Shown: positions 16,811 to 43,984 of the stretch, one piece after another
Layout of the letters: the number at the start of each line of letters is the position of its first letter
Position numbering within the stretch: position 1 is the stretch's first letter
Assembly: GCA_000002435.2 (NCBI GenBank)
Contig: CM018790.1
Length of the DNA stretch: 64,000 nt
DNA from: Giardia intestinalis
Lineage: Eukaryota
Reading direction: 5' to 3' (one strand)
Translations under genes and position numbers: made by a program
The notes under the pieces: generated by a model
What the model saw: only the letters and a program-made list of their open reading frames with translations
What the model was told of the DNA's origin: nothing
Databases searched by the model: none

Positions 16811-17033
16811 GTCTGATACTTTAATATAATAAGCAGTCTATCATAGATTTGTTGCTTTTTAAGAATTTAATCAATTAATTATACAGCTGTACTAGTGGCA
16901 GGAGGATGGGAATACCTCATTATTTCTGCGTTGAAAGTTTTTAGATTCGTTTGATGACCCTCAATCTCTTTTCCCTACAAATTATGTATCTCTGAATATA
17001 GCTATCAATGAGTGAATTTTTAGATGTGACCCA

Positions 17034-17474
17034 ATGGTCCTGTTTAACATATGCGGCTGCAAGGGGAGTCAGAGGTCACAGTCTCAAACACAATACTCAC
17101 ACATCGTATTGGACGACAGTCTGTCGGACTACCCGTTCGACACCAGCAACAAGCTTGTCGGGGCGAGCAGGGCTCTCGACGCCGACGCCGCCTCGACGGT
17201 TGTCGTCAACGAAAGGCTGACGTCCATCGAGGCCAGAACCCTGTTGGGGCGGGTGCACACCATGGAGCTTCTGCTTGACCAGTCGGCCCACACGATTGGG
17301 GAGCTGCGCCGCGAAAACGCCAGGCTGCAGCGGGTCATCCTGTCCACAGACGCATCAACGCAGAAGATCAGGCAGAGGGAGGTCCCCAAGCAATGCGCAG
17401 CGGAGAGCATATCAGGGAAATTCACTCCAGAACTGCCACAAAGCCCTATTCGTATGCTCCCTCTTTCCTACTGA
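17034..17474 (+). CDS. Small hypothetical coiled-coil protein (GC3-rich)
   Basis: A 146-aa ORF with ATG at 17034 preceded by an AT-rich spacer. Third codon positions are strongly G/C. It has a coiled-coil-like stretch 'MELLLDQSAHTIGELRRENARLQRVILS'. It overlaps the convergent ankyrin gene by 7 bp. Competing small ORFs exist in the other frames. Confidence 0.4.
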   Translation: MVLFNICGCKGSQRSQSQTQYSHIVLDDSLSDYPFDTSNKLVGASRALDADAASTVVVNERLTSIEARTLLGRVHTMELLLDQSAHTIGELRRENARLQRVILSTDASTQKIRQREVPKQCAAESISGKFTPELPQSPIRMLPLSY

Positions 17475-18766
17475 CGAATGGCCTTAATCCTCTTAACGAA
17501 CTTTTTGTAGGCGCCATCACTCTTAGCTTTCTTCTCAGCTATACTCAAAGCGTCAGAACCAGGATCGTGGTCAAACCACTTACTAGTATTCCCATCCTTA
17601 GCCGGTATATGTGCTTCCCTATCCAGTAGCAGCTCAGCACAGTCCAATTTACCATGGTGCAGTGCATACATGAGAGCGGTAGCACCCCAAGAATCCTGCA
17701 TACCCCCCTCCTTCTCGAGTAAGAGCTTGACACAGTCTACATAGCCGTTCTCTGCTGCTAGCATGAGGGCGGTCCAACCATAACCACTCCTCATGCCCCC
17801 CTCCTTCTCCAGGAGTAGTCTGACACACTCTTGGTGGCCATTCTGTGCTGCACATATAAGGGCGGTCTTACCAAATTTATCCTTTATACCCCCCTCTTTC
17901 TCTAGGAGCAACTCGACACAGTCTGGGTGACCATTAGCTGCTGCCCACATGAGGGCTGTCTTCCCGTCATGCCTCTGCATGCCTCCCTGCTTCTCCAGGA
18001 GTAGTCTGACACAGTTTGGGTGACCATTCTGTGCTGCTAGCATGAGGGCGGTCCAACCGTAATCACTCCTCATGCCCCCCTCCTTCTCGAGTAGGAGCTT
18101 GACACAGTCTGTATAGCCATTCTGTGCTGCATTCATGAGTGCTGTCCAGCTATTACCATCCTTCTTCCCCGTTTCCTGAAGATTACTCCTAACTGCATCA
18201 GCATCTCCAATGGAAGCAGCATACATAAGGCTCGTCCAGCCCGAGACATCACGTTCACCCTTGTGCTTCACCAGTAGCTTGACACAGTCTGGGTGGCCGT
18301 TCTCTGCTGCTAGCATGAGGGCTGTCTTCCCATCATGCCTCTGCATACCCCCCTCCTTCTCTAGGAGCAACTCGACACAGTCTGGGTGACCATTAGCTGC
18401 TGCACGCATAAGTGCAGTCCAGCCATCCTTGTTTACCATCCTGCTCTCTTTCTTTAATAGGAGTTTGGTGCATTCTGTGTGGCCATTCTGTGCTACCAGC
18501 ATGAGAGCTGTCTTATCATAATTATCCTTCATACCCCCCTCCTTCTCGAGTAAGAGCTTGACACAGTCTACATAGCCGTTCTCTGCTGCCCACATGAGGG
18601 CTGTCCAGCCATACTCATTCTGCTTACGGATTAGATCGGACGTAGCACCCAGCAATTTCTCGACGCATTCAGAGTCACCCCCCTTAGCAGCCCGCATGAG
18701 CTCGGTCATACCACGCAGGGGGCTGTCGGCTTCAACACCCCTGCGATCAACATCGCTCTGCGCCAT
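17468..18766 (-). CDS. Ankyrin-repeat protein (Giardia 'Protein 21.1'-type), about 12 tandem 33-aa repeats
   Basis: It has regular repeats 'GWTALMxAAxNGHxDCVKLLLEKEGGM'. The ORF-track start at 18955 is a GTG and that leader is GC-rich and non-protein-like. I place the start at ATG 18766 ('MAQSDVDRRG'), preceded on the minus strand by 'gagaaaataaaaATG'. Confidence 0.8.
   Translation of the reverse strand: MAQSDVDRRGVEADSPLRGMTELMRAAKGGDSECVEKLLGATSDLIRKQNEYGWTALMWAAENGYVDCVKLLLEKEGGMKDNYDKTALMLVAQNGHTECTKLLLKKESRMVNKDGWTALMRAAANGHPDCVELLLEKEGGMQRHDGKTALMLAAENGHPDCVKLLVKHKGERDVSGWTSLMYAASIGDADAVRSNLQETGKKDGNSWTALMNAAQNGYTDCVKLLLEKEGGMRSDYGWTALMLAAQNGHPNCVRLLLEKQGGMQRHDGKTALMWAAANGHPDCVELLLEKEGGIKDKFGKTALICAAQNGHQECVRLLLEKEGGMRSGYGWTALMLAAENGYVDCVKLLLEKEGGMQDSWGATALMYALHHGKLDCAELLLDREAHIPAKDGNTSKWFDHDPGSDALSIAEKKAKSDGAYKKFVKRIKAIRQ
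17640..18640. repeat. Intragenic tandem array of 99-bp ankyrin-repeat units with near-identical copies
   Basis: A 58-bp segment 'tacccccctccttctcgagtaagagcttgacacagtctacatagccgttctctgctgc' is identical at 17701-17758 and 18532-18589, 831 bp (3 x 277) apart. Many other units share long identical runs. Confidence 0.7.
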
Positions 18767-18779
18767 TTTTATTTTCTCT

Positions 18780-21700
18780 CCTGGCCAAGTGCATGAGACC
18801 GCAATTATTTCGTAATTTACACTACTCCGGGCTGCGACCGGCCGGAGCTCGCCAAGTAGACCAGCCATCTGAGGCAGAGGCGGACACTTATGTAGGAACC
18901 AAGGGCCTTCCCCTCCTGCTCTATAGACGGATGGCCACGAGACGCGGCACATCACCTACTCGTTGGTAGGGGCTTCTCGACGGCAGTGGAACGCTGCTTC
19001 CTTGTGTTGTGTCCGCAGGTGTCGAGCCCAGGTAACAAGCATGTTGCTGTGTCAGGTTCAGGATCAACTTGCAGGGATGGATTCACTCCACCCACCGGTT
19101 ACTTTCAGTGCTGTGCTGCTCCCCCCAGGCGGGTCAGGCATCCACGCTAACCCGCAGACTTGTGAACGCGTCCGGGACAGCCTCCATTGGAGACTTGGGA
19201 CTCCAGCATTGCAATGGCACGCTGGGCAGCCTGTGCCCTGTCCTCTTGCTGTGTCGGGCTCCTCACTAACGATCCCCGCCGGCTAGGAGCAGGACTGACC
19301 CGCTGGTCGGCTCGCCGGTGCCCGCTCCCTGGTCCCATGTAGAAACGGGAGGGCCTCTCGACTGCCTCGCCTGCGATGACGATGCGAAGGGAGCTCTACC
19401 TCTTCAACAGAGCTTGCCTCCGTCTCCGGATATAGCCAAAGATTCTACGGGTTTACTAATGGAATCTTAGATGTCCACAGGCAGAGGACCGGCAACAGCC
19501 AATTATTTCCAGCATTCTTCTGCTGAGCCCACACCTGCATGCGTGGTCCAAGGATCGCGCAGGTAAGCCAACTTCCCGTGCCGCTTGCGTGAAGACGGGG
19601 CAAGTCAGGGCTGGCGGATCTGGGCTCTCCCGTCAACCTTACTTTGAGCCCAAGCTTTTCTGGAGACCTCCGATGACTCCATCCAATCGACACCTGTGCA
19701 CAAGAACACCCGGTGTCTATCCTTTTCATTGTGTTGGGATCACTCTGGCCTTGGTGATTAGTCGTTCTCCTTTCCTCAACTGACATTATCTACTCAGCGG
19801 AGATCACAGGGGTCAGCTGGAAGTGGTCTGGAGGGCAGTGGGCGATTGACTCTCGGGTCCATCTGACGGCCTCATCAGGTGCTCATTCTCACTTGGACAA
19901 CTTTGATGACTGTGGAATAAACTGTCCATTCTGCATGTAATTGGGGGCGCTCCATTTCTATGGGGCTTTACCCTTCCACCGTAACAGTCCATCCGAGGAT
20001 GTTTCCATATTTATCACGTGCACCTACCAACAAGCCGCGAGTTTAGCCTTTGTCTTTGGTTCTGATCGTTGGAATGATTGCGTCTTCCCCTATATTAAAT
20101 TCCCCTGTCAGACGAAGGATAGACATAACAGCCATCCAGTGCTTCGTATCTAGTCCGGTTGCTTGAACAACCCGCAGTGCTGTCTCGCGTTTGTGTCATG
20201 ATCGAACGTGCTTCCTACCGTTCTCCCTTGCAAGCATTCTACGCACCTGCGAGCTGTATGTTGCTGCCCTAGTCGGGGCTGTGTTTCTACAGATGGTAGC
20301 CCTAACCCTATGCAACGAGCTACCTTCTCTTGAAAAAGGTTATAAAAAATAGGTCTTTCATGGGACTTTCAGGCCAGTCTGCAGGCAGGGCCCCAAAAGC
20401 ATTACACTGAACCTATTTGGATGGTGGGATAGGCACGTTCTCAGAGGATTCCGCCAGGTAGCAGGCGCTTTAGTCACACCGAGCGAGTAGACGCGGAACT
20501 ATAACAGGGCCTTAGGTCGTCTTCTCTGGCCGTCTCCCGTCTAGCATTCGTCCAATAGCCAGCACCAGACCGAAGTCTCAGCCTTAGACGGGCAGTCGTC
20601 ACATCGCGCTAGACTCCGGCTTCCTTAATCAAGGGGCCATTCAACGCGGAGCTCTTCCGGATACACAGCCCCCCGGATGGACCAGCTCAACAAGCCTCCT
20701 TGCAGGGGACCTCGTTGGGCATGGCTGGCGGCCGTCGGCTCCTGAGCAGGGGAGCTCATCCATTTCCCGGCGGTGGGCAGTGCACCCCCTCCGGCGCACC
20801 CACTCGTGCCAGGAGGCGTGTACAGGACGATCAGAGATGTAGTTGTGCCTGATGGCCACATCCAGGATGCAGACATGGAGGTAATAGTATACCTGTCAAG
20901 ACAGCACACGACTTCCCTACAGCTCCTTGGCGTGTCGGCGCACGCAGGCAGAGGACCAGCCAGGGTGGACTCCGTGGCTGACCAGCTGCACATCAGCCCT
21001 AGCTCACGGCCCAGAGAGCATTCAGTCGCCTGTTACCGGACGGGCCTGTCTGGTAGATCGTTGGCCCAGACCGCGGTGTTCGAGTCGTCTGCGCACACGG
21101 GAGAGACCTGCCTTCTCCTGCTGTGTGTGGTCTCTTCAACGATGTGTAAGCTGCGTCTGGTGGGCCCTGCGCTGTGCCGTGGTTGAGCATGCTGCACGCT
21201 CTAGGCATGACGGCCTCGCCACTGACCAGGCTCCGGCCATTAGCTGCTCCTACCAACCACTCTTCGCCAACCACCGAGCAAGCCGGGCTCTTCAGTCTTT
21301 AGCCCTTACTGGGGCACGTATCAGCGCACCCAGGCACGCCTCCGTAGCCCACAGGGGGGAAGCATGGCACGCACGCGAAGGCAACGGGCGACCCGAGGAG
21401 ACCCTGGCCCGTCTGGAGCGGGAGGACGCCGGGCCCAGGAACGACCCCGGGCGGGAGGGCGAGGACGAGGCACCCCGGCGCGTGCGGGGGCAGAAGCGCA
21501 GAGACCGCGCCCGGGGCAACAAAGACCGGCCCCCCGACGGGCGGCACCAGCGGAGGCGCGGCGCAACCAAGAACGCAGGGGGGCGGGGGAGAGGCCGCCA
21601 CAGGAGATGCCTCCTCCTCCTGCTTGGCCGCCCTCGGGCCGTATGTGCGGCGCGGCAGCACCACCCCGTGCTCCTCCAGGGCGGCGCGGACGTCCTGGGT

Positions 21701-24330
21701 GCGGAGCGCGTTGTTGTACGTCATCCGCAGCTCCTGGCGCGGATACTTCATCCCGAAGCGCTCGTGGACCCTGCGGTAGAAGTCCGGGCCCAGGATGCTC
21801 CGGTCCCTGACCCCGGCGATGATCATCGCCTTGATGGCCCTGCGGTCCTCGCCGGTCATCTTCACGTTGAGGATGCTCCGCGAGTGCGTCTCGCGGTACC
21901 AGTGGTAGATCCTGCTCCGGTCCTCGGACAGGGCGCGGGCGATCTTCTTCCAGTCGATGGCCGTCCGGAGCACGTGCCGGTGGAGGAGCAGCGGCCGCCG
22001 CACGAGGCTCTCGGCCGTCTCCCCCAGCCGCCGGGCAGCGACGACCTGCTTCGCGAGCTCGAGCAGAACGGAGGCGCGCGTCTCCGCCGTCATTGCCCCA
22101 GAGCCCATCCGATAGAAGCGGCGATAAAACTAAAAACAGACCAACGAATAATGTGAAATTAAATATGTACAGGCCTTGCACAAAAGCTTTAGCGGGTGTT
22201 TGTTGCCTGCCTGCCCCGGTCCGTCGGGCGAGCAGGGCGCCCCCATCCGGGCCATCGCCGCAGTACGAGTTGGCTTAGGCCGCCACACAGAACAGACTGC
22301 TTTACATACAGCGGCGCCGGGGCTGATGTATTGATCGGAGTTTTTTGGTATTGCCGAGGACCCCTGCCCTCGGCCGCTAGGGAGAGCCGCACCCTGCGCA
22401 GCCCCGGTTTGTCTGCATATGCCCAGAGCTCTGCGGAGGCGGGCAGGCTGGGGCCGTCCCCCTCGTTCGGGGCATCGCCGACGACGAGCTGCTGCCTGCG
22501 GCCTGCGAGGTCCTCCGCTCTGAGAGGGGCCACCGAGTGTCGTGGGCCGCAGCGCTCTGCAAGGCCTGCACACGACCAGAGGCTGCCCAGTTTTTTGAGC
22601 AGTTGGCTCTGGCGCGGATTCTGCGGACGCCTGCTGCCGGCCCGGTCTACAGGGGCGCCCGCGTGTCTACTGTGGCCTGGTGTGCGTGCCTGCGCGTCCT
22701 CCTGCGGCGGCTCCCCTTATGGCGCAGAAAGCCCCGCCTGTCCCCTCCCACCGGGTTCTCCCGACGTGCTCTCTACCGCGCCCAGCCGAGTTTCCAGCGA
22801 ACAAAGGAGTGGCATGACCAAATCAGTCGCCAGATTACAGTGTGATCTGCGGCCGCGAATCTTGCTGGCATCTTACGTGACAGTGGCTCTGGGTGTGCCC
22901 GTTCAGCAGCAGCTGCCTTGAACATAGATACTTAACGTGACCCGTATGCTAATATCTGCTCGCTCAATCTGTACAGAAGGATCTAACGGTATGCCGGCTA
23001 GAGCAGTAGGACTCGTCAGGCGAGCACACCGGAATTGCGTGGAGTACGCATCTCTAAAGGCTTGCATGCCTGGATCTGTGCTCGTCTTCTCACTGAGACC
23101 CCAGTACAGCGAAAGCGTTTAATATAAACAGAAAGCCGTGGTGTCGCTAGGGTCTATTCGGGCCGCTCAACTATACCGAATCATTCCTACCGGTAAAGCC
23201 TGACTGCTTGCTACTAAGCAGAAGAAAGCGACTCCATGGCGGCCAAGCGTGGAATCGGTACGCTGTCAAGCCTCTCGATTCAGATGCAGAGTCTGCAATG
23301 TCCACGTGAGTAGCACACCACCTGGTTGCCGCTTGCCTGTTATAGACTGCAAATCGACACGTAGGCTCGCAGGTCGGCTGCATCTTACTCGGAAATACAA
23401 GACGCTGCTCCTGTCTGGATCACAGATGCGAATCGCCGGTCCCGATGCGCACGAGTGTTACAGAGTAACAAGGAGAGCACCCGTCTATGGCACACAGTCA
23501 CAATTCGAGTGGTGTCCAGCTCTCCTGGAGAAGAGGCATGCCACGATCAACGGCATACTGCTTTGAACACCAGTAAGCACACCTACTATGTCTGCGAGGC
23601 CGAGGGCGGCCGTATCCCCAGCTACTACTTGTCACTCGGACGCACATGTGTGACGAGACGTGCGGGCGCCCTTCATAAAGGCCTCCTGATGCGCAACACA
23701 CGGCCCAACCGCCTCTTCTCTGAGAGACAGATGGATTTTGCTTGTAGTGAGCCATGCTAGCGTAACGGACTTCTGAACACGTCCCTCTGTTGAGGATTCA
23801 GCGGCTACGCACTGGGGCTAGACACGCGTGTTCTGTGGCCAACACGGGACTTGGCCGAGCAAAGGAGGTAACGAGTCGGCGCTTCTGGCCCGATGCTCTG
23901 CGTGACTGCGCCAGAGACCAGGCTGCCAACGTGCCGGTTAAGGAGAAGACGCGATGATCCACCATCGAGGACTGCAGTACCTGCGGAGACGGGCAGGAGC
24001 GACTTTTTATGACCACGAGCCTGAGCCCTTTAAGGTCTGTGCCAGGCTCTTCGCATTACACAGCTCCTCCTCGTGTGTGCCCTCAGAGAGAGCGAACATC
24101 CTCTTCGACAAGCACTTCTGTGGACACCACAGCAGGGATGCATAGTTCCGCGCTGACCATGCCTTAGCCCCATTGGGGTTGGTGACAAAACTACGACTTC
24201 CCTGTCACGAGACATTACGCTCTGTACAGAAGAATGCCAGCGAGTCATGCAAGGCCTGTGGATCTGTCCTTCAACCTTCTTCTGACAGATGTGTGTCTTT
24301 TGACATGCAGCTCTGCATTGCATGACGGTT
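18780..24330. other. GC-rich, ORF-poor island (~5.5 kb) interrupting an otherwise compact gene array
   Basis: Composition switches abruptly from ~50% to >60-70% GC just upstream of the ankyrin gene start at 18766. Only short, mutually overlapping ORFs occur on both strands, except the Myb-like ORF. No rRNA, tRNA or telomere signatures are recognisable. AT-rich sequence resumes near 24330, upstream of the kinesin. Confidence 0.5.
21299..22108 (-). CDS. Myb/SANT-like DNA-binding domain protein with Pro/Gly/Ala-rich C-terminal tail (~70% GC)
   Basis: ATG at 22108 is immediately preceded on the minus strand by a sharply AT-rich segment (22109-22190: 'ttttagttttatcgccgcttctatcggATG'). The N-terminal ~170 aa are protein-like. 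'RTAIDWKKIARALSEDRSRIYHWYRETH' resembles a Myb/SANT repeat (DWKKIA...R...HW). The C-terminal half is P/G/A-rich. All six frames are open across this stretch because of its extreme GC content. Confidence 0.45.
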   Translation of the reverse strand: MGSGAMTAETRASVLLELAKQVVAARRLGETAESLVRRPLLLHRHVLRTAIDWKKIARALSEDRSRIYHWYRETHSRSILNVKMTGEDRRAIKAMIIAGVRDRSILGPDFYRRVHERFGMKYPRQELRMTYNNALRTQDVRAALEEHGVVLPRRTYGPRAAKQEEEASPVAASPPPPCVLGCAAPPLVPPVGGPVFVAPGAVSALLPPHAPGCLVLALPPGVVPGPGVLPLQTGQGLLGSPVAFACVPCFPPVGYGGVPGCADTCPSKG

Positions 24331-24733
24331 CGCCCTCCAAGTGATGGTCTAGAGGACTCAACGCAGTGGTTCCCAAGATATGTGTCCTGAACAGAAGATT
24401 ATACGATCATATACCTCTGAATGTGCACAACATGATTCAATGCTTGCTTTAACGCCCTGTATTCTGATAGTCATAATTTATTTGCATGCCTTTAAAGAAC
24501 TTATCGTTTAAGCTGTTACCGATTTTGGTGCTGCAACTTATTTGCCGCATCTTATCACAAAAGCTTGATATCAAGATATCTTTCACAGACATGAAATAGT
24601 AACCCATGTGTCAGTTTGAATAAATATAAGCGTCCATAGCCTGGTGCTACCAAACAAGCGACGGTGGATGAGTAAATTGAAATGACAAAAGATATAAGAA
24701 GGAAGAGGTACGGCTAAAGATTTCAAAATTTTA

Positions 24734-27700
24734 ATGACTAGCGCTGGGAATCAAGCCGGTCCAACCGCTTCCGGAAAGGAAGTTAACATAGCGGTAGTAG
24801 TGCGTGCACGGCCTCTGAACACACGCGAGGTTGCTCACAGTTCTAAGTCGGTGGTCCGGATTAACACGTCTGCTAATGTTATCGAGATCAGTCAGCAAAA
24901 TAGACAGCAAGCAAAGACTTATTTCTTTGACAAAGTATTCGACGAAACCGCCAGCCAAGAGTTCTTTTATAGACAAGTCGTATCTCCAGTAGTCAAGGAC
25001 TTCCTCGATGGATTTAATTGTACTCTCTTTGCTTACGGTCAGACAGGAACAGGGAAAACATATACAATGATAGGTGATCAAGGGCATTTTACGGGGGACC
25101 GGAGGGTAAAATACGTCGATTTTTCCACCATCCCTCACGCAGGCATGATACCCAGGGTAAGTAATGAGATTTTCTCTGTGCTTGATAGTCAAAATGCAGA
25201 TTACCAAGTTCGCGTTTCGCACATGGAGGTCTATTGTGAAGAAATCTATGACTTACTCAAAGATTCATCTGACGAGCGAGAGGCGCTTAAACTTTTCGAA
25301 GAGCGGTCTTCATACGGAGTTACTCCAAAAGGTCATAGAGCAGATGAGGCTAAAGAATCCAAAGACTCTACTGCCCTGCCCTCCACCAACCTTCTTCAAC
25401 CAGGGGACAAAGCAGGTGGAAGACTCGTTATTTTGGGCCTTGAGGAGGTTCTTGTCAAATCTCCTGGGGAGATCATGTCTCTTTTGATTAAGTCGACCGA
25501 GAATCGACGCGTGGCAGAGACTAAGATGAATTCCAGCTCATCACGCTCTCATTCCATCTTCACTATATGTCTAATTGTAAAGGAAACGGCGCCTTCTTCT
25601 AATAACAATACCGATATCGATGTCATACGTATTTCGAAGCTGAACCTTGTGGACTTGGCAGGTAGCGAATCAGCCGGTAAATCGGGTGCATCAGGAGATC
25701 GCCAGCAAGAAGCCAGTAAGATAAATAAGAGCCTTCTTACGCTTGGCCGTGTCATCAACGCTCTCACAGAGACAAAGCAGCATATTCCGTACAGAGAGTC
25801 TAAGCTGACCCGTCTACTACAGGATTCACTCGGTGGCCGAACAAAGACATGCATAATTGCGACCATTACCACAGCAGACCTGGCATTAGACGAAACCACT
25901 AACACCCTAGAGTACATGTCAAGAGCTAAGAAGATCAAAAATCTACCAGAGGTGACCACGAAGATTAGCGGCAAATCCGTATTGAAGGAATACTCCCTGG
26001 AGATAAAGCGCCTACGGGAGCTGCTCTCTGCTCAAAAGGATGCTCAGGGAGGAATCTTTCTTACCGTTGAAAACTATGACGAGATGAATGAGGCGGCGCG
26101 CGTTAACAAGGCCCAGATCGCAGACCTAGAAGCGCGGATACAGCAAGCAACTAAGGAGATGGAGCGAGTCACCGCACTGTTGGTTTCAGGGGAGCAGAAG
26201 GTCGAGAAGCTGAAGCTAGCTTTGAATAAGACGGTAGAAAAGGTGAATGAGCTCCACGAGGAGAAGTGTCGGCTTTATGAGAAGATTGTTCTTGGTCGTG
26301 ATAAAGAAAAGATTAACGCAGCACAGCTGGATCACCTTAGGGCTAACGGGGCCTCTCTCATTCTTGAAAATGTATTTGGTCTAGATTCTCTTCGTCACAT
26401 GATTGATAAGAGCGGGATTTCCTCTGCGATAATAGAGATAGAGAAAACCGTATCTGCTTGCAAGGCAGAGCTCTCACTCTTCTCAAAAGCCCTTACCCAG
26501 GTCCTAGATGAGCATAAGAGGAACTTAGATGGTGGCTTGGAAAAGCTGTTGGAGAAGCTTATGGTTCCTGTTCTCAAAAGCTCTGCAGAAGTGCTTGGTA
26601 CAAGCATTCCAGGACTTTTAGAGACAGACTTATTGGGGAAGTTGTCGTCTGAGATGAAAAGCCATCTTATGGAGGAGGCACGACAAGGATTATCTTCCTT
26701 TATTGTTAATCCTCAAATCGAGCTCCTTCGCAAGCTGACAGAAGGGTCTACTGCATCCCTGGGCTTACTTGATAACTTGTCTAGTGCGCTCGATAAGTCT
26801 TCCGAATCGGTTCAGTTGCTACTGCAAAATATCTTAGCGCAGATTCAGGTTTTTGCTGAGAAGGAAACAGCATTTCTTTCGGGGCTGGATTCATTTCTAG
26901 CAAGAGAAGTGGAGCATCGTACGCACGCACTGGTCTCTAATCTGGAGAAACAGCTGCAAGCCGCGCACAAAAGTGTTCTTTCGGAGTTTACTGAAGTGCT
27001 AAGATCTAGTACTCAGGAGTTGAAGGACAGTCTCGCTAATCAGTGCAATACTCAACATGGTCGGATCGGCGTACTGACAGATACTGTCGACACATGGAGA
27101 GCTAAAGACGTACCTACTGTAGTTGAAAGATACGCAGACATCACTCGACAACTCAGTGAGCTCCGTTCGTCCATGAACCTTTCTCAAGCCATCGTGTCTA
27201 GTCACACAGACTCTGTCAAGGACGCTACGTCTAAGTATGAAGAGCTTCTTGAGAGGTCTTTTGATAAGGAGGTAACAGGAAGTATAGCGGCACCCATTAC
27301 CAAATCCATAAAACAGCTAACACAGATTGGGGAAACATTAATGGACATGATGGATGCCTTCACAGTCCAGCTAGGCAGCATCTCTAATACATCTCATGCT
27401 ACGCTTGTGGAGAGAACTGCGCAACTTTCTCACACATATATTCAGGAAGGTGTTGTAGACAAACTTCTGAGCGGGGCTGTGCTAGATTCTACAATTCGAG
27501 ATAGTGCTCCAGCAATTTCCTTGCTGGCCGCAGATCTTGAGAAGGATTGTTTGGCCACTGCTGACGGTGCCTCAGAGGGCACCTTTGCTATGGTTACCAA
27601 CATGGCCGTGTGCTCCATCTCAGATCTGATCAGTCGCTTTGAGGCTTCTGTAGCGTCTGCATTCTCAACCCTGGTTTCTAATTTCCACCTTACGCCTGTT

Positions 27701-27934
27701 ATTCAGACTGGTGGGTCTTCTTTGCAGACCCCTGCTTTGGCGACACCCAATGTACGGCCCATTTCCCTCGCCCAAACACATACTGAATTTGTCTATGGAG
27801 TAGTTACCCCATCTGTTCCTCTTAATAAGAGCATCTCAAATAAAGAGCCCCTAGCTACTATGCAAAAGCTCAACGAGTCCGGCAATCCAACTCCAACCAA
27901 AGCACCCACAGGAGCGTCACCACCTCAAAAATAA
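24734..27934 (+). CDS. Kinesin motor protein (N-terminal motor; kinesin-5/BimC-like architecture)
   Basis: It has a P-loop 'FAYGQTGTGKTYTM', switch I 'SSRSHS' and switch II 'LVDLAGSE'. The opening 'NIAVVVRARPLN' is typical of kinesin motor heads. The motor is followed by a long coiled-coil stalk, 1066 aa in total. 'caaaattttaATG' lies upstream. Confidence 0.9.
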   Translation: MTSAGNQAGPTASGKEVNIAVVVRARPLNTREVAHSSKSVVRINTSANVIEISQQNRQQAKTYFFDKVFDETASQEFFYRQVVSPVVKDFLDGFNCTLFAYGQTGTGKTYTMIGDQGHFTGDRRVKYVDFSTIPHAGMIPRVSNEIFSVLDSQNADYQVRVSHMEVYCEEIYDLLKDSSDEREALKLFEERSSYGVTPKGHRADEAKESKDSTALPSTNLLQPGDKAGGRLVILGLEEVLVKSPGEIMSLLIKSTENRRVAETKMNSSSSRSHSIFTICLIVKETAPSSNNNTDIDVIRISKLNLVDLAGSESAGKSGASGDRQQEASKINKSLLTLGRVINALTETKQHIPYRESKLTRLLQDSLGGRTKTCIIATITTADLALDETTNTLEYMSRAKKIKNLPEVTTKISGKSVLKEYSLEIKRLRELLSAQKDAQGGIFLTVENYDEMNEAARVNKAQIADLEARIQQATKEMERVTALLVSGEQKVEKLKLALNKTVEKVNELHEEKCRLYEKIVLGRDKEKINAAQLDHLRANGASLILENVFGLDSLRHMIDKSGISSAIIEIEKTVSACKAELSLFSKALTQVLDEHKRNLDGGLEKLLEKLMVPVLKSSAEVLGTSIPGLLETDLLGKLSSEMKSHLMEEARQGLSSFIVNPQIELLRKLTEGSTASLGLLDNLSSALDKSSESVQLLLQNILAQIQVFAEKETAFLSGLDSFLAREVEHRTHALVSNLEKQLQAAHKSVLSEFTEVLRSSTQELKDSLANQCNTQHGRIGVLTDTVDTWRAKDVPTVVERYADITRQLSELRSSMNLSQAIVSSHTDSVKDATSKYEELLERSFDKEVTGSIAAPITKSIKQLTQIGETLMDMMDAFTVQLGSISNTSHATLVERTAQLSHTYIQEGVVDKLLSGAVLDSTIRDSAPAISLLAADLEKDCLATADGASEGTFAMVTNMAVCSISDLISRFEASVASAFSTLVSNFHLTPVIQTGGSSLQTPALATPNVRPISLAQTHTEFVYGVVTPSVPLNKSISNKEPLATMQKLNESGNPTPTKAPTGASPPQK

Positions 27935-33570: not shown

Positions 33571-35691
33571 ATGTCGAGCATCGAGCTTCCCGAAGGCTAC
33601 CGCTTCCAGACGACTTTGGCGGCAGGAGAGTACAGCATGCTCTTCCTGGCCATGGGAAACGACTACCAGGAGGTCGCTATCAAGAGCTTTGATTGCACGC
33701 AGATGGACGATGCACAAGTCTCGGAAATTCACCGCCAGGCCCTACTCCTGAAGTCCGTTAACCATCCGCTGGTACTCAAGGTATATGACGTCCAGATGAA
33801 CATTACGCGCACGCGCCTGCACGTGATCATGGAGCCCTTCTTCAAGACGCTTCAGAACCTCATCGACGAGTGTGAGAAGGCAGATCGCTCGCTCCTCAAC
33901 AACATCGTCTGCCAGGTGGCCTACCAGGTCATCAAGGGGCTCCACTATCTCTCCACCACCAACCATGTCGCGGTCAACGAGCAGGGACAGGAGTTCTCGC
34001 AGGACAAGATCTTCCACTCGTTTATCACACCGAACGACATTGTGTTCAACACCTCCGGAGTTGTGAAGCTTATGAACATCTTCCCCCTGGAGCATAGGAT
34101 GCTCTATGAAAAGGGCGACGCCAGCTTCCCGGGGCTCGCCTATGCGTCGCCTGAGTTTCTCAACAGGGAATACACCGAGTGCCCTGCCGATGTGTGGTCT
34201 GCGGGCGCGTGCATTTTCGCCATGGCTATGCGCAGGCCCCCGTTCAACTCTACCAACGTGGAGTCCCTAAGGGTGGAGGTCGAAGAAGGAAAGAAGGATG
34301 GCCTCGATATCAGCTTCAGCCGCGAGCTTGATGACATGCTCCAGCGCATGATGACGCCGGACCAGGGCTACAGGCCCACTGCCGGCGATCTCCTCAACGA
34401 CCCCTCAATCACCGAGGCGGCGTACGAGATCGAAGCGGGCGGCCTGCAAAACCCGTGGATGGCAATCGGCTTCTCCAGGCCGATCTCTCAGGCAGTGGCC
34501 CCTGTGTCCAACGACTCCCCGGTCCTCGCCCTGGATCCGAACAATGTGTACCCGATTGCCTTCGATGACAACAACCCATGGGAGAGGTACTGGCTTAACG
34601 CTCCTCGTCCAGATGCGACAGTCGACGCAGCCTCCTACACCAGGGGCACTATCGGCGAGGAAGTGGTTGCAAGGGTCCCGACACCACCGCCCGAGATGGA
34701 TATGTATGCCACGATGGATGATGCCTACAAGGGTGCCAACGATGAGTCCGCCTACTACGCCCCTGATAGCTATTATGGCAGTGCCCCTGCAGAGAGCGTC
34801 ATGGACGTCGCGCAAGTTGTGCGGGTGGAGACGCCTCCTCCAGAGCCTGATGCCTATGCTGACGCGGGCGCTCAGGGCAATGACTATAAGGTGGACGATG
34901 AGGCAGCGGCCTACGCACTCACCAGCTACTACGGTGATGCGCCTGCGGACAGCATCATGCTTACCGATGATGAGGTAGTCCACAGGATTCCCACACCACT
35001 GCCAGAAGGGGTGGCAGAGGTAGTTGTAAAGAGGAGCGCACCAGCCCCGGTCCCAACCCCAGCCCCGCTCATGGAAACGGCACCTGAGTCCAAGACTGTC
35101 ACTGCTCTTATGAACGCGGTTCGAACGGGCAAAAACGATGTTGTGCAGAGGCTCGTCGGAGAGCACTCCGGAGACATCGGATGGAAGACGCCCAACGAGA
35201 AGAAGACCGCCCTCATGGTCGCTGCGGATCTTGGGAACGCCGAGGCTGTCGAGTTGCTGGCGCCATGTGAGTGTGGTGAGGTAGACTCGGATGGCTGGCG
35301 AGCGATCGATTACGCCGCCCAAAACGGTAATGTCAGGGCCGTCAACGCTCTTCTTCAGTACGAGGGAGACATGCCTATCGTGCGCAAGGACGGATGCACG
35401 CCGCTCTTCCAGGCGGTGTTCTGGAACAAGCCGGACTGTGTGAGGGCACTCGCTCCTAAGTACGCCGGCGCAACGACGACAAGCCACTACTGGCAGGGGG
35501 AGGGCTTTACGGCCCTCATGGAGGCGGCTAAGTGCTGCCGCGTCGAGTGCGTTGAGATTCTGGCGCCCTATGAAGCGAAGATGACGGACAAAAAGGGTCA
35601 TACAGCACTCTACCACTGTGAGCACGCGTGGGACCATATTCTCGATGACGCCAAGAAGGAGGAATGCATCAGGATCCTCGAGAGGGCCTAG
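33571..35691 (+). CDS. NEK-like pseudokinase with C-terminal ankyrin repeats
   Basis: The track start at 33514 is a TTG, so I use the first in-frame ATG, at 33571 ('MSSIELPEGY'), which has AT-rich sequence upstream. Kinase-like N-terminus: beta3 'VAIK' is present, but 'HSFITPNDIVFN' replaces HRDLKPxN with no catalytic Asp and there is no DFG; 'ASPEF' and 'DVWSAGACIF' are retained. The C-terminal ankyrin module is 'PLFQAVFWNKPDCVRALAP...HYWQGEGFTALMEAAKCCRVECVEIL'. Confidence 0.8.
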   Translation: MSSIELPEGYRFQTTLAAGEYSMLFLAMGNDYQEVAIKSFDCTQMDDAQVSEIHRQALLLKSVNHPLVLKVYDVQMNITRTRLHVIMEPFFKTLQNLIDECEKADRSLLNNIVCQVAYQVIKGLHYLSTTNHVAVNEQGQEFSQDKIFHSFITPNDIVFNTSGVVKLMNIFPLEHRMLYEKGDASFPGLAYASPEFLNREYTECPADVWSAGACIFAMAMRRPPFNSTNVESLRVEVEEGKKDGLDISFSRELDDMLQRMMTPDQGYRPTAGDLLNDPSITEAAYEIEAGGLQNPWMAIGFSRPISQAVAPVSNDSPVLALDPNNVYPIAFDDNNPWERYWLNAPRPDATVDAASYTRGTIGEEVVARVPTPPPEMDMYATMDDAYKGANDESAYYAPDSYYGSAPAESVMDVAQVVRVETPPPEPDAYADAGAQGNDYKVDDEAAAYALTSYYGDAPADSIMLTDDEVVHRIPTPLPEGVAEVVVKRSAPAPVPTPAPLMETAPESKTVTALMNAVRTGKNDVVQRLVGEHSGDIGWKTPNEKKTALMVAADLGNAEAVELLAPCECGEVDSDGWRAIDYAAQNGNVRAVNALLQYEGDMPIVRKDGCTPLFQAVFWNKPDCVRALAPKYAGATTTSHYWQGEGFTALMEAAKCCRVECVEILAPYEAKMTDKKGHTALYHCEHAWDHILDDAKKEECIRILERA

Positions 35692-35765
35692 GAGCTCTAG
35701 ACTCCCGGAGAGTAAAGCGCCTGCGTGGCTTTGTTAAAATTCACAAATTACAGAAAAAAGTGAGG

Positions 35766-36521
35766 ATGGACCCCATGGAGGTTGAGGTTATCCGTACGCC
35801 GTCCGACTCAGACATAGCTGGTTCCGGGGGGCCCGCGACTGCGGTGCCCATGAGCAGGGCCGCTCCAGCGCCCCAGGCCACAGGGGAAGATCCTCAGACG
35901 CTCCCGAGGCTGACCACGCTTGTCAACCCTGACGAAGGGGTGACGGAGCTCATGGTTGCTGCTCGCCGCGGAGACGAAGAGACCGTCATGGCACTCTTGG
36001 ACGAGCAGGCATGCCAGGTCGATGCACGAGGGCGTACAGCACTCATGTATGCCGCCGAGATGGGCAGATCATCCATTGTGGAGCTGCTTAAGGACCGCGA
36101 GGCAGGCATCCAGGACTCGTTTCTGTGGACGGCGCTCTTCTATGCGGCGCAAAACGGGCACCTCGTCTGCGTCTCCATGCTTGCACCTCTTGAAGCAAAG
36201 ATACAGCGCAAAGATGGCTGCACTGCCCTCTTCCTAGCAGTCTTTTGGAACCACATCGAGTGCGCCCGCATCCTCGCTCCTCTAGAGGCGGGGATCACAA
36301 CAAACTACAAACACTGGCAGGGCGGAGAGTACACGGCCCTCATGGAAGCAGCGAGGTGGGCCCGTTTGGAATGCATTGAACTTCTTGTCGAGCAGGAGCA
36401 CGGTATGAAGGACGCGTCTGGAAATAGGGCAATTGACTACGCCCGTGCTCCCTACGCACACGTCCCGGAAGATCGCAAAGAGCAGTCCATACAGCTTCTT
36501 GAGCAGTATGAGCGCGACTAG
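35766..36521 (+). CDS. Short ankyrin-repeat protein (kinase-less paralog of neighbouring NEK-ANK genes)
   Basis: The listed ORF ATG at 35664 overlaps the upstream gene. I prefer the internal ATG at 35766 ('MDPMEVEV'), which is preceded by 'acagaaaaaagtgagg'. It contains only the shared module: 'TALMYAAEMGRSSIVELL...ALFLAVFWNHIECARILAPLEA...KHWQGGEYTALMEAARWARLECIELL'. Confidence 0.7.
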   Translation: MDPMEVEVIRTPSDSDIAGSGGPATAVPMSRAAPAPQATGEDPQTLPRLTTLVNPDEGVTELMVAARRGDEETVMALLDEQACQVDARGRTALMYAAEMGRSSIVELLKDREAGIQDSFLWTALFYAAQNGHLVCVSMLAPLEAKIQRKDGCTALFLAVFWNHIECARILAPLEAGITTNYKHWQGGEYTALMEAARWARLECIELLVEQEHGMKDASGNRAIDYARAPYAHVPEDRKEQSIQLLEQYERD

Positions 36522-36641
36522 ATCGCTGCCGGCGCATTCTCTAGCATCCCCTGCCGCTGAGTGAACATCTGTGACCACAGTAAAGCGAATTTAAAATGGA
36601 ATTTGGGGTTTTTGGTCAAACCGCTTAAAGCGGGCAATAAA

Positions 36642-38189
36642 ATGGACGGCCAGGCCTTTGCCATGGACTACCAGCCCGTTGCGGACATCTACTCCACCGG
36701 CGTGCACGAGATTGCCTCTGCACGCTCGACCAGGGATCCTAGCTCGAACATCGCTCTCTTCACCTGCTCCTATGGCGGGTTTGACGAGTCGGACCGAGCT
36801 ACCCTCAGGAGGCGCACGGGCGAGTACTGCGAGTTCAACAACTCGTCGACCGCTGTCCAGCCGGATCTTCTTAGCCCTTATCTGGCGCGTCTGTCCCACT
36901 ACTTCAACGACGATGCGTCTGCCCTCCTGACCATGGGTCTTCCTTACGGAGTTAACACCCTCTACGACGTGATGATGGCGAAGGCTCAGTCATACAGCAA
37001 CTTCACCGAGGAGGAGGTCTGGCGCGTGGTTGCGGCCCTCTGTGATGCCGCGCGCTTCATGCACAGCGAGGAGAAACCCGACACAGAACTGGAGGAGTTT
37101 GCGCACCTTGGCATCCACCCTGCCAACATCTTCCTGTACGCTGACGGCGCCCGTATCAGGCTTGGGTACCCGTACATCTGCCCCACAATGAGTTTCAAGA
37201 ACCCAGGCAATTACAGGGCCTTCCAGCAGCTCGGCGAGGCGCACTTCATGGCGCCGGAGTTCATCGAGGCTGGCGCCAAGGGCTCGTGTCCTTGTGACAT
37301 ATTCTCTATCGGTATGGTTGGGTATGCCATGATGACAAACTCGACTGCCTGGAGCGCGAGCAATATCAACGATCTGCAGGGAGAGGTGTACACTCGCGGG
37401 GCCATCAGCCTGCCATACGACGGCCGATACAGCCAGGACCTCGTTGATCTCATCAACTCTATGCTTTCCTTCGACTCGTCTGCCCGCCCCAAGGCAGAGC
37501 AGCTCTGTGCAAGCGGAAAGATTGCGCAGTGCATCGCGGAGAACGGAGACGCTCCCACGATGGCTCCTCCGAAGATGACCCGCGATATCGTCCAGCCACC
37601 CAGCGGGCTCACAGACCTCATGATCGCTGCCAGAGACGGCGACCTCAGTGGCGTCAGGAACAACCTCCACCAGGCAGGGTCCACAGACCAGTGCGGCCGC
37701 ACCGCTCTCATGTACGCGGCAGAGCACGGGTACGCCGATTGTGTCCGCGCGATCGTCTCTGACGCAATGGGCCACGGCGAGGTTCGCCTCCAGGACAAGT
37801 ACATGTGGACTGCAACCATGTATGCTGCCCAGAACGGACACGCCGATTGCGTCTCGCTTCTCCACGAGGAGTTCGGGATGCAGCGTCGCGACGGTGCCAC
37901 GGCGCTCTTCACTGCCGTCTTCTGGAACCGTTGCGAGTGCGTCAAGGTGCTCGCCCCGACTGAGGCCATCATCTCCACCAACGACAGGTACTGGCAGGGC
38001 GAGCGCTACACGGCTGCAATGGAGGCCGCAAGGTGGGGACGTCCCGAGTGTCTCCAGGAGCTTCTTGGGTACATCGACAAGTACACTACCGATAATAATG
38101 GGAACGATGTGGCGTACTATGCCATGCACCCATGGGAGCACGTGTCTGCAGATAAGAGCAGCAGAGTGCGTGAGGTCCTGAACCTGTAA
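36642..38189 (+). CDS. NEK-like pseudokinase with C-terminal ankyrin repeats
   Basis: The track start at 36561 is a GTG, so I use the first in-frame ATG, at 36642 ('MDGQAFAMDY'), preceded by 'gcaataaaATG'. The catalytic loop is 'AHLGIHPANIF' (HRDLKPANI with D->G and K->H). 'APEFIE' and 'DIFSIGMVGY' are retained. The C-terminal module is 'ALFTAVFWNRCECVKVLAPTEA...RYWQGERYTAAMEAARWGRPECLQELL'. An AGTAAAT motif lies after the stop. Confidence 0.8.
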   Translation: MDGQAFAMDYQPVADIYSTGVHEIASARSTRDPSSNIALFTCSYGGFDESDRATLRRRTGEYCEFNNSSTAVQPDLLSPYLARLSHYFNDDASALLTMGLPYGVNTLYDVMMAKAQSYSNFTEEEVWRVVAALCDAARFMHSEEKPDTELEEFAHLGIHPANIFLYADGARIRLGYPYICPTMSFKNPGNYRAFQQLGEAHFMAPEFIEAGAKGSCPCDIFSIGMVGYAMMTNSTAWSASNINDLQGEVYTRGAISLPYDGRYSQDLVDLINSMLSFDSSARPKAEQLCASGKIAQCIAENGDAPTMAPPKMTRDIVQPPSGLTDLMIAARDGDLSGVRNNLHQAGSTDQCGRTALMYAAEHGYADCVRAIVSDAMGHGEVRLQDKYMWTATMYAAQNGHADCVSLLHEEFGMQRRDGATALFTAVFWNRCECVKVLAPTEAIISTNDRYWQGERYTAAMEAARWGRPECLQELLGYIDKYTTDNNGNDVAYYAMHPWEHVSADKSSRVREVLNL

Positions 38190-38265
38190 CGTGTCGACTC
38201 GTTAGTAAATCAATCTAAGCTTTACTGCGCAGTTAAAAAAGGCGGACTTTTTTAAAAAGAAATTA

Positions 38266-43335: not shown

Positions 43336-43984
43336 TGGGTATCCTATTATTCGATTTTGTTCTTCGGACAGGCATGCTATGATGTCGCAAATATTGGGTC
43401 CCCAACGGTAATGAACGGTCTTCTCTGCTGGTCAATCCTGCTGGTCAATCAATTCTATAAATGTTGAGTGACAGATTGACACAAGCTATAATTTGTTTTA
43501 GTTTGTTGAATACACACAAACACTTATAAAGAGTAAATCGCTCTTAGGCTTTTTCCTTCTCTTTGCTACACCCCTGATGCAGCAACGGAGTCTATCGAAT
43601 ATGTTAGTTAATTTTTATAACTTAGTTGATTGAGTAACCTAAGCCGTCACTGTCCGGACTTCTTCTGTGCACAAGTAAATAAGGTGTGCAGACTCACTAT
43701 TTCAGGAGACACATGCAGATGACTAGTTTCTCGAAAGGCCCTGCAATAAGCCATAAAATCAAAGCGTTTCATTACTCTAAGAGCAATCTGCCCTCTCTCG
43801 GACATATCTACAGGGACAGGTACTGTCACTTATGTCACTATACTAGTAAGCAGGTGGCACCCGGAACCAGGAAGCACCGGTAGGCAAGCAAGTAAAGAGA
43901 TGATCTTCTTTTCTTCCGAAGCAAAAAGACATTGGGGCAAATAATTGTTATCGGTTGTTCTAGTCACATTCTGAGTCCTGCTCG

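Follow-up and report, generated by a model that had tools for sequence, protein, structure and literature searches.

What kind of DNA fills a long, almost gene-free interval in a genome as compact as that of Giardia intestinalis? We analyzed a window of 64,000 nucleotides from G. intestinalis WB (contig CM018790.1), in which the initial annotation had singled out an ORF-poor, GC-rich island at 18780-24330. Gaps between ATG-ORFs in this window have a median of 106 bp, with the largest gap outside the island measuring 649 bp, and the mean intergenic distance across the published genome is 477 bp (PMC7000408). The stretch lacking credible genes proved slightly longer than first described, extending over 18767-24733, from the first base past the ATG of an ankyrin-repeat gene to the last base ahead of the kinesin-5 ATG. 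As had been proposed, it holds a single credible gene, the one called 'Myb-like' (21299-22108, minus strand), which is flanked by spacers of 2532 bp and 2625 bp. Both the ORF poverty of the island and its exceptional standing in a compact genome were confirmed. We consider it likely that the island is a composite rather than a single element, comprising a multi-copy gene, a dispersed repeat and a locus-specific spacer (Table 1).

Table 1 Features of the gene-poor interval and its bordering genes, in window coordinates.
Feature	Coordinates	Strand	Evidence or remark
Ankyrin-repeat protein, Giardia 'protein 21.1'/ARP-1 type, 432 aa; left boundary	17468..18766	-	Pfam Ank_2 E 6e-104; ATG at 18766
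Left non-coding repeat, GC 0.54	18755..20539	.	BLASTN; no Pfam domain, no protein homologue
GC-rich (0.615) non-coding segment downstream of GL50803_112150	20540..21298	.	Paralogue comparison
GL50803_112150, 269 aa	21299..22108	-	Exact match to Giardia WB protein
AT-rich promoter-proximal region of GL50803_112150	22109..22208	-	WB vs P15 95% identity; upstream alignment
GC-rich (0.634) non-coding block upstream of GL50803_112150	22109..22871	.	Copy alignments; not coding
Locus-specific non-coding spacer, GC 0.55, 0.39 in last 430 bp	22872..24733	.	Orthologous in DHA2, P15
Kinesin-5, 1066 aa; right boundary	24734..27934	+	Pfam Kinesin E 3e-102; exact match XP_001707038

The centre of the island is a genuine protein-coding gene, GL50803_112150. 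Its product combines a confidently folded, all-helical N-terminal domain of 154 aa (about 21646-22108), consisting of two Myb/SANT-like three-helix bundles, with a Pro-rich disordered C-terminal tail of 115 aa (21299-21645). The three-helix bundle repeats superpose on solved Myb repeats. Pfam has no family for the protein; Myb_DNA-bind_6 touched only two of 14 family members, its best E value of 0.011 falling below threshold, and no Pfam Myb model passed. A profile search of PDB sequences gave nothing significant (best E 0.58), and Foldseek returned no significant match. The product is probably a DNA-binding protein with a Myb/SANT-like N-terminal domain. Unlike the Myb/SANT proteins c-Myb (R2R3), Cdc5/Cef1, SNAPC4 and Reb1, however, the family was found only in diplomonads, with distant members in Giardia, Trepomonas and Hexamita, and its DNA binding is putative.

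A young subfamily that includes GL50803_112150 has at least seven near-identical copies in the WB genome, dispersed on at least four WB sequences of 1.5-4.0 Mb (1, 3, 1 and 2 copies per sequence), and a 639-aa paralogue is single-copy and conserved across assemblages. GC3 is 0.97, 0.95 and 0.88 in the multi-copy genes of assemblages A, E and B, compared with 0.65 and 0.46 in older paralogues; GL50803_112150 has an overall GC of 0.715 and a GC3 of 0.97 in its N-terminal domain. The family copy in assemblage B has a VSP gene on one side and a NEK gene on the other. The WB gene identifiers of the family are cited by no paper in the literature that we searched.

About two thirds of the island consists of a dispersed low-copy repeat, for which we derived copy boundaries from six independent repeat-bearing sequences of other assemblies. 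Long similarity that includes non-coding DNA connects unlinked loci: BLASTN aligned 18749-20689 at 88.9-89.0% identity with a locus beside a TOG-domain gene (L003/L004) and 19812-22871 at 84.5% with a locus beside annexin genes (L002), and additional copies are present in L014-L016. The left repeat recurs at a second locus (L003, L004 and L006), where it adjoins another ankyrin gene downstream of a diverged family paralogue, with a patchy identity of 85-100%. Its start is sharp at about 18755, with one mismatch and one gap in the following ~150 nt, and it takes in the first ~12 coding bases and the AT-rich promoter of the bordering ankyrin gene, which itself contains internal repeats with a period of 93 bp. 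On the other side, the block upstream of GL50803_112150 and the N-terminal coding block form a unit of ~1.2 kb that is 93-100% identical among assemblage-A copies. Coverage of one 4.8-kb repeat contig was 62.7x, compared with 22-25x for the contigs of that assembly that are single-copy. The spacer toward kinesin-5 is about 95% identical to its DHA2 orthologue and about 73% identical to that of P15, and it matched no other sampled sequence.

Comparisons among strains showed mosaic exchange between the chromosomal copies. Assemblage-A copies are 0.93-0.98 identical in the upstream block and 0.99-1.00 identical in the domain coding sequence, and the orthologous pair of WB and DHA2 (0.935 and 0.991, respectively) is no closer than paralogous pairs; the corresponding values for assemblage A against P15 are 0.75 and 0.95. 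Within 20540-21340, WB resembles L002 (0.88-0.96), whereas the DHA2 orthologue resembles a DHA2 paralogue, L003 (0.94-0.99), and across 20540-21298 the WB and DHA2 orthologues are only 0.62-0.79 identical to each other. The nearest relative switches segment by segment. Paralogues as similar as orthologues, together with the differing downstream segments of WB and DHA2, point to ectopic recombination or gene conversion.

GL50803_112150, with about 0.8 kb upstream and about 2.5 kb downstream, is segmental-duplication material common to other loci, and the remaining 1.9 kb toward kinesin-5 is locus-specific non-coding DNA that changes at a roughly neutral rate and in which GC is declining. The near-identity of the 1.2-kb upstream and domain-coding block between loci is probably maintained by ectopic recombination or gene conversion, and the same exchange has probably given WB and DHA2 their differing paralogous versions of the downstream segment. 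Part of the similarity among paralogues could stem from recent duplication from this locus instead of conversion between old copies.

The GC profile agrees only in part with its first description. Mean GC over 18780-24330 is 0.593, compared with 0.497 for the whole window, and the DNA around the gene is GC-rich and non-coding, as had been claimed. An abrupt rise to more than 60-70% at 18780 was an overstatement: GC is 0.52-0.55 in the ankyrin gene, climbs to 0.58-0.60 and then returns to 0.50 at 19750-20500. Within the island, 500-bp windows with GC of at least 0.60 are confined to 20501-23000 (about 20.5-22.9 kb), and those with at least 0.70 to 21251-22000, inside GL50803_112150. The fall reported at ~24330 was accurate, with GC dropping to 0.39 upstream of kinesin-5 from about 24300. 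GC is also high (0.60-0.63) in a second stretch at 34-38 kb, where NEK kinase and ankyrin genes form a coding cluster, and high GC in the window is therefore not limited to non-coding DNA.

GC decreases with distance from the homogenized block. Polarized substitutions in the locus-specific spacer comprise 81 S->W and 46 W->S changes, implying a GC* of about 0.41 against a present GC of 0.55, which indicates that GC is decaying there. Derived changes among the assemblage-A copies of the homogenized block number 28 W->S and 49 S->W (GC* about 0.53, present GC 0.66); relative to the spacer, GC* is shifted in the direction expected under GC-biased conversion, although the counts are small and present GC exceeds GC* here too. 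Third codon positions differ between WB and P15 by only 4.5%, compared with about 25% in the adjacent upstream block; selection on the coding sequence would explain this low divergence no worse than a regional conversion bias would. We infer that the GC peak (0.62-0.72, GC3 0.97) arises from gene conversion with a GC bias among the copies, from strong selection on codon use in the gene, or from both.

The flanks themselves carry no detectable coding signal. On both strands the overlapping short ORFs reflect composition rather than genes, in agreement with the initial annotation, and two that we examined in detail are non-coding: a 242-codon frame at 22193-22918 (plus strand) has substitutions spread 18/13/18 across codon positions, and a 122-aa ORF at 20625-20993 (minus strand) does not stay open in a paralogue, which has stops and frameshifts there. 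A 409-aa ORF at 20927-22156 (plus strand) is the codon-aligned antisense of GL50803_112150, and stays open as a by-product of that gene's GC3 of 0.97. Could the spacers, especially the unique one, be ancient pseudogenes decayed beyond recognition? A spacer GC that stands above its equilibrium would be expected of formerly coding or GC-rich DNA that is relaxing, and the right spacer has kept a near-constant length (2625, 2624 and 2677 bp in A1, A2 and E). Pfam searches of 70 stop-to-stop segments nevertheless found no significant family, six-frame translations of 22906-24398 and 18896-20368 had no homologue among 5.8 billion proteins, and no frame matched VSP, NEK or ankyrin, all of them abundant families in Giardia. 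The unique spacer has no nucleotide similarity to other sampled Giardia DNA, and its P15 orthologue is just as ORF-free. We therefore judge a pseudogene origin unlikely.

An eroded mobile element, either a GilD-type 'dead' non-LTR retrotransposon or a ~4-kb non-canonical transposon in which the Myb-like gene supplies the DNA-binding component, is a quite unlikely source of the flanks. Arkhipova and Morrison reportedly described the Giardia non-LTR retrotransposons GilM, GilT and GilD in 2001, GilD being degenerate and chromosome-internal. PIF/Harbinger transposons are known to carry Myb-like accessory proteins. The repeat unit is multi-copy and dispersed and has a sharp end against L002 at 22871/22872. 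Moreover, a 39-bp motif of the island (19082-19120) is found again in L003, about 450 bp away from an RVT_1 gene, and a 268-bp piece of L015 matches the same neighbourhood. Like the Gil elements, the island is GC-rich and multi-copy, and a Gil-like RVT_1 element lies near the paralogous copy in L003. It differs in having no remnant of a non-LTR retrotransposon ORF, whether reverse transcriptase, endonuclease or zinc finger, and the 39-bp motif is all that it has in common with DNA beside the Gil-like element; tblastx of the island against that element gave only scattered, non-collinear fragments. Integrase and transposase signals were likewise missing from every frame, and we found no terminal inverted repeats bracketing the unit, no long terminal repeats and no tandem repeats. 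Copy ends are unequal rather than fixed (22871, 22918 and at least 22998 on the right), and on the left the similarity to L002 tails off gradually. The distant relatives in Giardia, Trepomonas and Hexamita have no transposase domain, and the conserved single-copy 639-aa paralogue also speaks against a mobile component. The earlier suggestion of a decayed mobile element or pseudogene cluster consequently found no support.

That the island is a locus for a long non-coding RNA, or serves the Myb-like gene as an extended regulatory region, for example through long UTRs or antisense transcripts, appears distinctly improbable. Sterile and antisense transcripts are abundant in Giardia, and family members elsewhere likewise adjoin long gene-less stretches (1.7 and 1.5 kb at L013, 3.1 kb at L003 and about 2.1 kb at L007). 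Against this reading, Rfam models had no hit in the window at their gathering thresholds, nor any within 17000-26000 at E<=1, the island contains no tRNA, and a folding scan of 158 windows found no z-score below -2 (mean +0.20, minimum -1.8), leaving neither rDNA nor a known structured RNA among these searches and no excess of secondary structure. The structured-RNA locus that had been suggested was thus not recovered. Divergence between assemblages A and E is near neutral (about 73% identity) except in the promoter-proximal 100 bp, to which strong conservation in the right spacer is confined, and the left flank is freely replaced between sub-assemblages.

More speculatively, the GC-rich repeat, the Myb/SANT-like protein that it encodes and the gene-free kilobases, a recurring arrangement, might together form a functional chromosomal element rather than a passive duplication, a reading that we regard as highly improbable. 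Such an element may comprise centromere-like, origin-like or heterochromatin-nucleating sites bound by the family's own protein, or a cassette that propagates itself through ectopic conversion. We found no mapping of Giardia centromere sequences in the literature searched, and the distribution of WB copies over sequences (1, 3, 1 and 2) fits poorly with one centromere per chromosome. An assembly chimera or horizontally acquired insertion, which a composition unlike the surroundings and a P15 contig that breaks within the gene might suggest, carries negligible probability: mis-assembly is excluded by the same order and spacing in the independent DHA2 assembly, collinear over the whole interval (contig AHGT01000025, L012), and in P15 over the right half (contig ACVC01000037, L001), where the break is explained by a repeat in a short-read assembly, and foreign origin is very unlikely for a diplomonad-restricted family whose older paralogues have normal GC.

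The island is unusual for the compact Giardia genome, yet it is no new kind of element. Xu et al. 2020 (PMC7000408) ascribed 6.9% of the WB genome to duplication, mostly as short one-gene stretches, and described gene-poor regions near variable gene families. The island resembles those duplications in being a one-gene repeat beside an ankyrin-family gene, but that study makes no mention of the GL50803_112150 family or locus, and here the non-coding flanks are duplicated and exchanged as well. Multi-copy (ampliconic) families under interlocus gene conversion offer a second parallel, in that paralogues within a lineage are closer than orthologues between lineages, tracts are mosaic and the homogenized block is GC-elevated. 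The island copies are, by contrast, few (about seven) and dispersed rather than arrayed, and the island showed no W->S excess, the feature by which GC-biased conversion is usually recognized.

For annotation, these results mean that no further features should be annotated in the roughly 5 kb surrounding GL50803_112150, where the long GC-rich ORFs are artefacts. They also draw attention to an uncharacterized diplomonad-specific family of putative DNA-binding proteins, and within it to a recently amplified subfamily whose copies are near-identical and extreme in codon composition (GC3 0.97). Finally, the island is a concrete locus at which sub-assemblages A1 and A2 differ by kilobase-scale exchange of repeat segments. 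Loci of this kind are places where short-read assemblies break, and as markers of ectopic recombination they are useful in a species for which sex and recombination remain a matter of debate.

The stretch comes from Giardia intestinalis WB C6, and a 1066-aa ORF on its plus strand is identical to kinesin-5 (XP_001707038). On the left side, the ORF at 17468-18955(-) matches Pfam Ank_2 (E 6e-104) and encodes an ankyrin-repeat protein whose true start is the ATG at 18766, with an AT-rich stretch ahead of it. Given these two neighbors, the interval free of credible genes, apart from one 269-aa ORF, is 18767-24733. In a greedy set of ATG ORFs, the spacers beside the 269-aa gene measured 2532 and 2625 bp, compared to a median gap of 106 bp within the window, a largest gap outside the island of 649 bp, and a published genome-wide mean of 477 bp in Giardia WB (PMC7000408). 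The ORF-poor island described in the initial annotation is an exceptional and real feature of a compact genome, unusual yet explicable. The 649-bp gap, the sole other sizeable one in the window, lies upstream of a DEAD/DEAH-box helicase gene. At its 3' end, the ankyrin gene shares 7 bp with a 146-aa ATG ORF, for which Pfam gave no match.

Coordinates of features in the window and, where a locus is named, at related loci
Feature	Position (strand)	Remark
Ankyrin gene	17468-18766(-)	left neighbor
Ankyrin periodic units	17613-18650	93 bp (31 aa)
Ankyrin orthologue, DHA2	L012 13353-14153	266 aa called
146-aa ATG ORF	17034-17474(+)
39-bp motif	19082-19120; L003 16102-16140	~90% identical
AT-rich patch	20334-20410	GAAAAAGGTTATAAAAAATAGG
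122-aa ORF	20625-20993(-)
409-aa opposite-strand ORF	20927-22156
GL50803_112150	21299-22108(-)	269 aa
Aromatic-Val/Ile-Pro motif site	21299-21345 region	alignment columns ~390-400
Longest flank frame	22193-22918(+)
Kinesin-5	24734-27934(+)	right neighbor
Second GC-rich stretch	33571-40599	coding cluster, peak 34-38 kb
Antisense ORFs in cluster	34405-35637(-), 36990-38141(-)	no Pfam match
649-bp gap	43336-43984
268-bp piece	L015 4632-4897	matches L003 16128-16395
Gene-poor stretches at other family loci	L013 1778-3480, 4498-6042; L003 10880-13959; L007 7914-10000; L002 10778-14075

The island is enriched in GC (mean 0.593 over 18780-24330 versus 0.497 for the window), and the previously noted fall at ~24300 holds, but the abrupt rise to 60-70% claimed at 18780 does not: GC steps there only from 0.52-0.55 to 0.58-0.60 and is back to 0.50 at 19750-20500. 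In 500-bp windows, GC of at least 0.60 is confined to 20501-23000 and GC of at least 0.70 to 21251-22000, within the 269-aa gene. A second region of high GC (mean 0.57, rising to 0.63) holds NEK kinase and ankyrin-repeat genes in tandem, along with long antisense ORFs; in the window, high GC accompanies multi-gene families.

The 269-aa ORF exactly matches the hypothetical protein GL50803_112150. Of its 20 relatives in a word-indexed search, all those with a source name were from Giardia. A profile search with the N-terminal domain reached 79 cluster representatives, among them the conserved Giardia paralogue GL50803_38275 (639 aa) as well as Trepomonas sp. PC1 and Hexamita inflata proteins; a marsupial coiled-coil protein, matched only weakly, is probably a spurious hit. 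In the ten distant family members tested, no transposase or other known domain was present. Within the first ~135 residues, 36 columns of the family alignment are invariant; beyond them lies a variable, Pro-rich tail. Substitutions relative to a low-GC paralogue (53, 38, and 105 at the three codon positions) follow the pattern of coding sequence. AT-rich DNA covers ~95 bp upstream of the ATG, and identity between assemblages A and E is 95% in the first 100 bp upstream of the gene and ~73% in the remaining spacer. AlphaFold2 modeled nine helices, including two consecutive three-helix bundles, with pLDDT >90 across most of residues 11-150; from residue 155 onward the tail is disordered. Foldseek found no significant match to this model in the PDB, and none of the Pfam Myb models scored above threshold on the family. 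The label "Myb-like" given to the gene is reasonable at the level of fold but does not extend to sequence-level membership. The protein is diplomonad-specific and probably DNA-binding. A literature search by the family's WB gene identifiers found no paper in the library covered that mentions them. The island is a hitherto undescribed example of a familiar kind of feature.

Most probably, the island consists of a genuine multi-copy gene set in dispersed low-copy repeat, with recombination of the repeat between loci, together with a spacer that is unique and neutral. The WB genome holds at least seven gene copies at ≥90% protein identity, spread over four WB sequences 1.5-4.0 Mb long; the comparison that follows sets the WB window against copies from DHA2, P15, GS_B, and ENA/Logan assemblies. 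Window 19812-22871 matches a locus adjoining annexin and RING genes (L002) at 84.5% over 3.1 kb, and 18749-20689 matches L003 and L004 at 89%, at a locus beside a TOG-domain gene and downstream of a diverged family paralogue, again abutting an ankyrin gene. The left repeat starts sharply at ~18755 and takes in the ATG and promoter of the ankyrin gene; its first ~150 nt contain only a single mismatch and a single gap. The core also occurs on three further contigs (L014-L016), for one of which coverage was 62.7x versus 22-25x in that assembly's single-copy contigs. On the right, the shared block ends at 22871 (L002), 22918 (L016), or at least 22998 (L015), depending on the copy; on the left, its similarity to L002 fades gradually. 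Sensitive blastn and nhmmer searches with 22872-24733, run on every locus retrieved and on the remainder of the window, matched nothing but orthologues.

Collinearity extends over the whole interval in DHA2 (assemblage A2) and from the gene rightwards in P15 (assemblage E), whose contig terminates inside the gene. WB and DHA2 share ~98-99% identity in the flanking genes and ~95% in the unique right spacer. Identity is only 87.8% over 18304-20875, and 20876-21336 did not align at all. A four-way alignment accounts for this loss of identity. Over 18740-20540, the closest pair alternates patchwise between WB with the DHA2 orthologue and the DHA2 orthologue with a DHA2 paralogue; over 20540-21340, WB is closest to the paralogue L002 (0.88-0.96) and the DHA2 orthologue to the DHA2 paralogue L003 (0.94-0.99), with only 0.62-0.79 between WB and its own DHA2 orthologue. 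In a 1.2-kb block of six assemblage-A copies, upstream DNA is 0.93-0.98 and domain coding sequence 0.99-1.00 identical, the orthologous pair being no closer than paralogous pairs, versus 0.75 and 0.95, respectively, between A and P15. Since the locus is older than the A/E split, the similarity within A requires recent transfer of sequence between loci, with gene conversion and a recent re-seeding of copies as the possible routes. Literature searches on Giardia gene conversion or GC3 and on Giardia centromere maps found nothing specific; a centromere-like role for the island, also considered, would be a remote possibility.

GC by codon position is 0.66/0.46/0.97 in the N-terminal domain, compared to 0.54/0.40/0.46 in kinesin-5; GC3 reaches 0.95 for the P15 orthologue and 0.88 for a copy from assemblage B, against 0.65 and 0.46 for older paralogues. 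The 409-aa opposite-strand ORF is an exactly codon-aligned antisense of the gene, as expected where a gene has no A-ending codons. Changes polarized with P15 in the unique spacer (46 W->S, 81 S->W) imply an equilibrium GC near 0.41, indicating that its present GC of 0.55 is decaying. For the homogenized block (28 W->S, 49 S->W) the implied equilibrium is ~0.53, above that of the spacer but below the present 0.66. Only 4.5% of third codon positions in the domain differ between WB and P15 (7/154), versus ~25% in the adjoining upstream block. From these counts, GC-biased conversion among copies may plausibly have contributed to the GC peak, and selection on the coding sequence may count as much.

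The flanks are non-coding and not structured RNA. Their short overlapping ORFs had already been read as non-coding, and we concur: in the longest frame, where long ORFs are present in all six frames, substitutions against three relatives were spread evenly over codon positions (18/13/18, 14/17/18, and 59/49/54), and the 122-aa ORF is interrupted in a paralogue. Pfam searches of the long ORFs and of 70 stop-to-stop segments (≥50 codons, all six frames) gave nothing significant (best E 0.019 over 70 tests), and concatenated six-frame translations of 22906-24398 and 18896-20368 had no match at E≤0.001 in a set of 5.8 billion proteins. The suggested structured-RNA locus found no support in Rfam (no match at gathering thresholds over the window, nor at E≤1 over 17-26 kb), in an ARAGORN tRNA search, or in a folding scan of 158 windows of 100 nt (mean z +0.20, minimum -1.8; neighboring coding DNA, mean 0.01, minimum -2.9). 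The only tandem periodicity detected was that of the ankyrin gene. In the left flank, the ATG that follows an AT-rich, promoter-like patch opens an ORF of only 16 codons; the patch could be the remains of a promoter or could give rise to sterile transcripts.

Among other origins, ancient pseudogenes are possible but unlikely for the unique spacer, and nothing in it identifies any. A decayed mobile element, one of the initial candidates, is not supported. The 39-bp motif and a 268-bp piece of L015, the latter downstream of another family copy, recur ~0.2-0.45 kb from a Gil-like reverse-transcriptase gene at L003 in DHA2; they are the sole hints of a mobile element and may be a relic of retroelement-adjacent DNA. 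Tblastx against that retroelement gave only non-collinear noise, six frames held no enzymatic remnant, inverted repeats were short chance-level pairs with no terminal pair bracketing the repeat unit, the ends vary between copies, and the gene family resembles host genes. The family's restriction to diplomonads contradicts a foreign insertion, and the collinear order of independent assemblies contradicts mis-assembly.

Other family members, diverged ones included, likewise adjoin unusually long stretches (1.5-3.3 kb) that lack credible genes (Table), and the copy in assemblage B has a VSP gene on one side and a NEK kinase gene on the other. Most family members carry an aromatic-Val/Ile-Pro motif near the C-terminus (FACVPCF, FAYVPCF, FTYIPFI, IAYVPVL, and similar) in an otherwise unalignable tail; this sequence could be a conserved short linear motif. 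The body of the ankyrin gene is nearly unalignable between WB (432 aa) and DHA2, with flanks ~99% identical, and its repeat array appears to be rearranging quickly.
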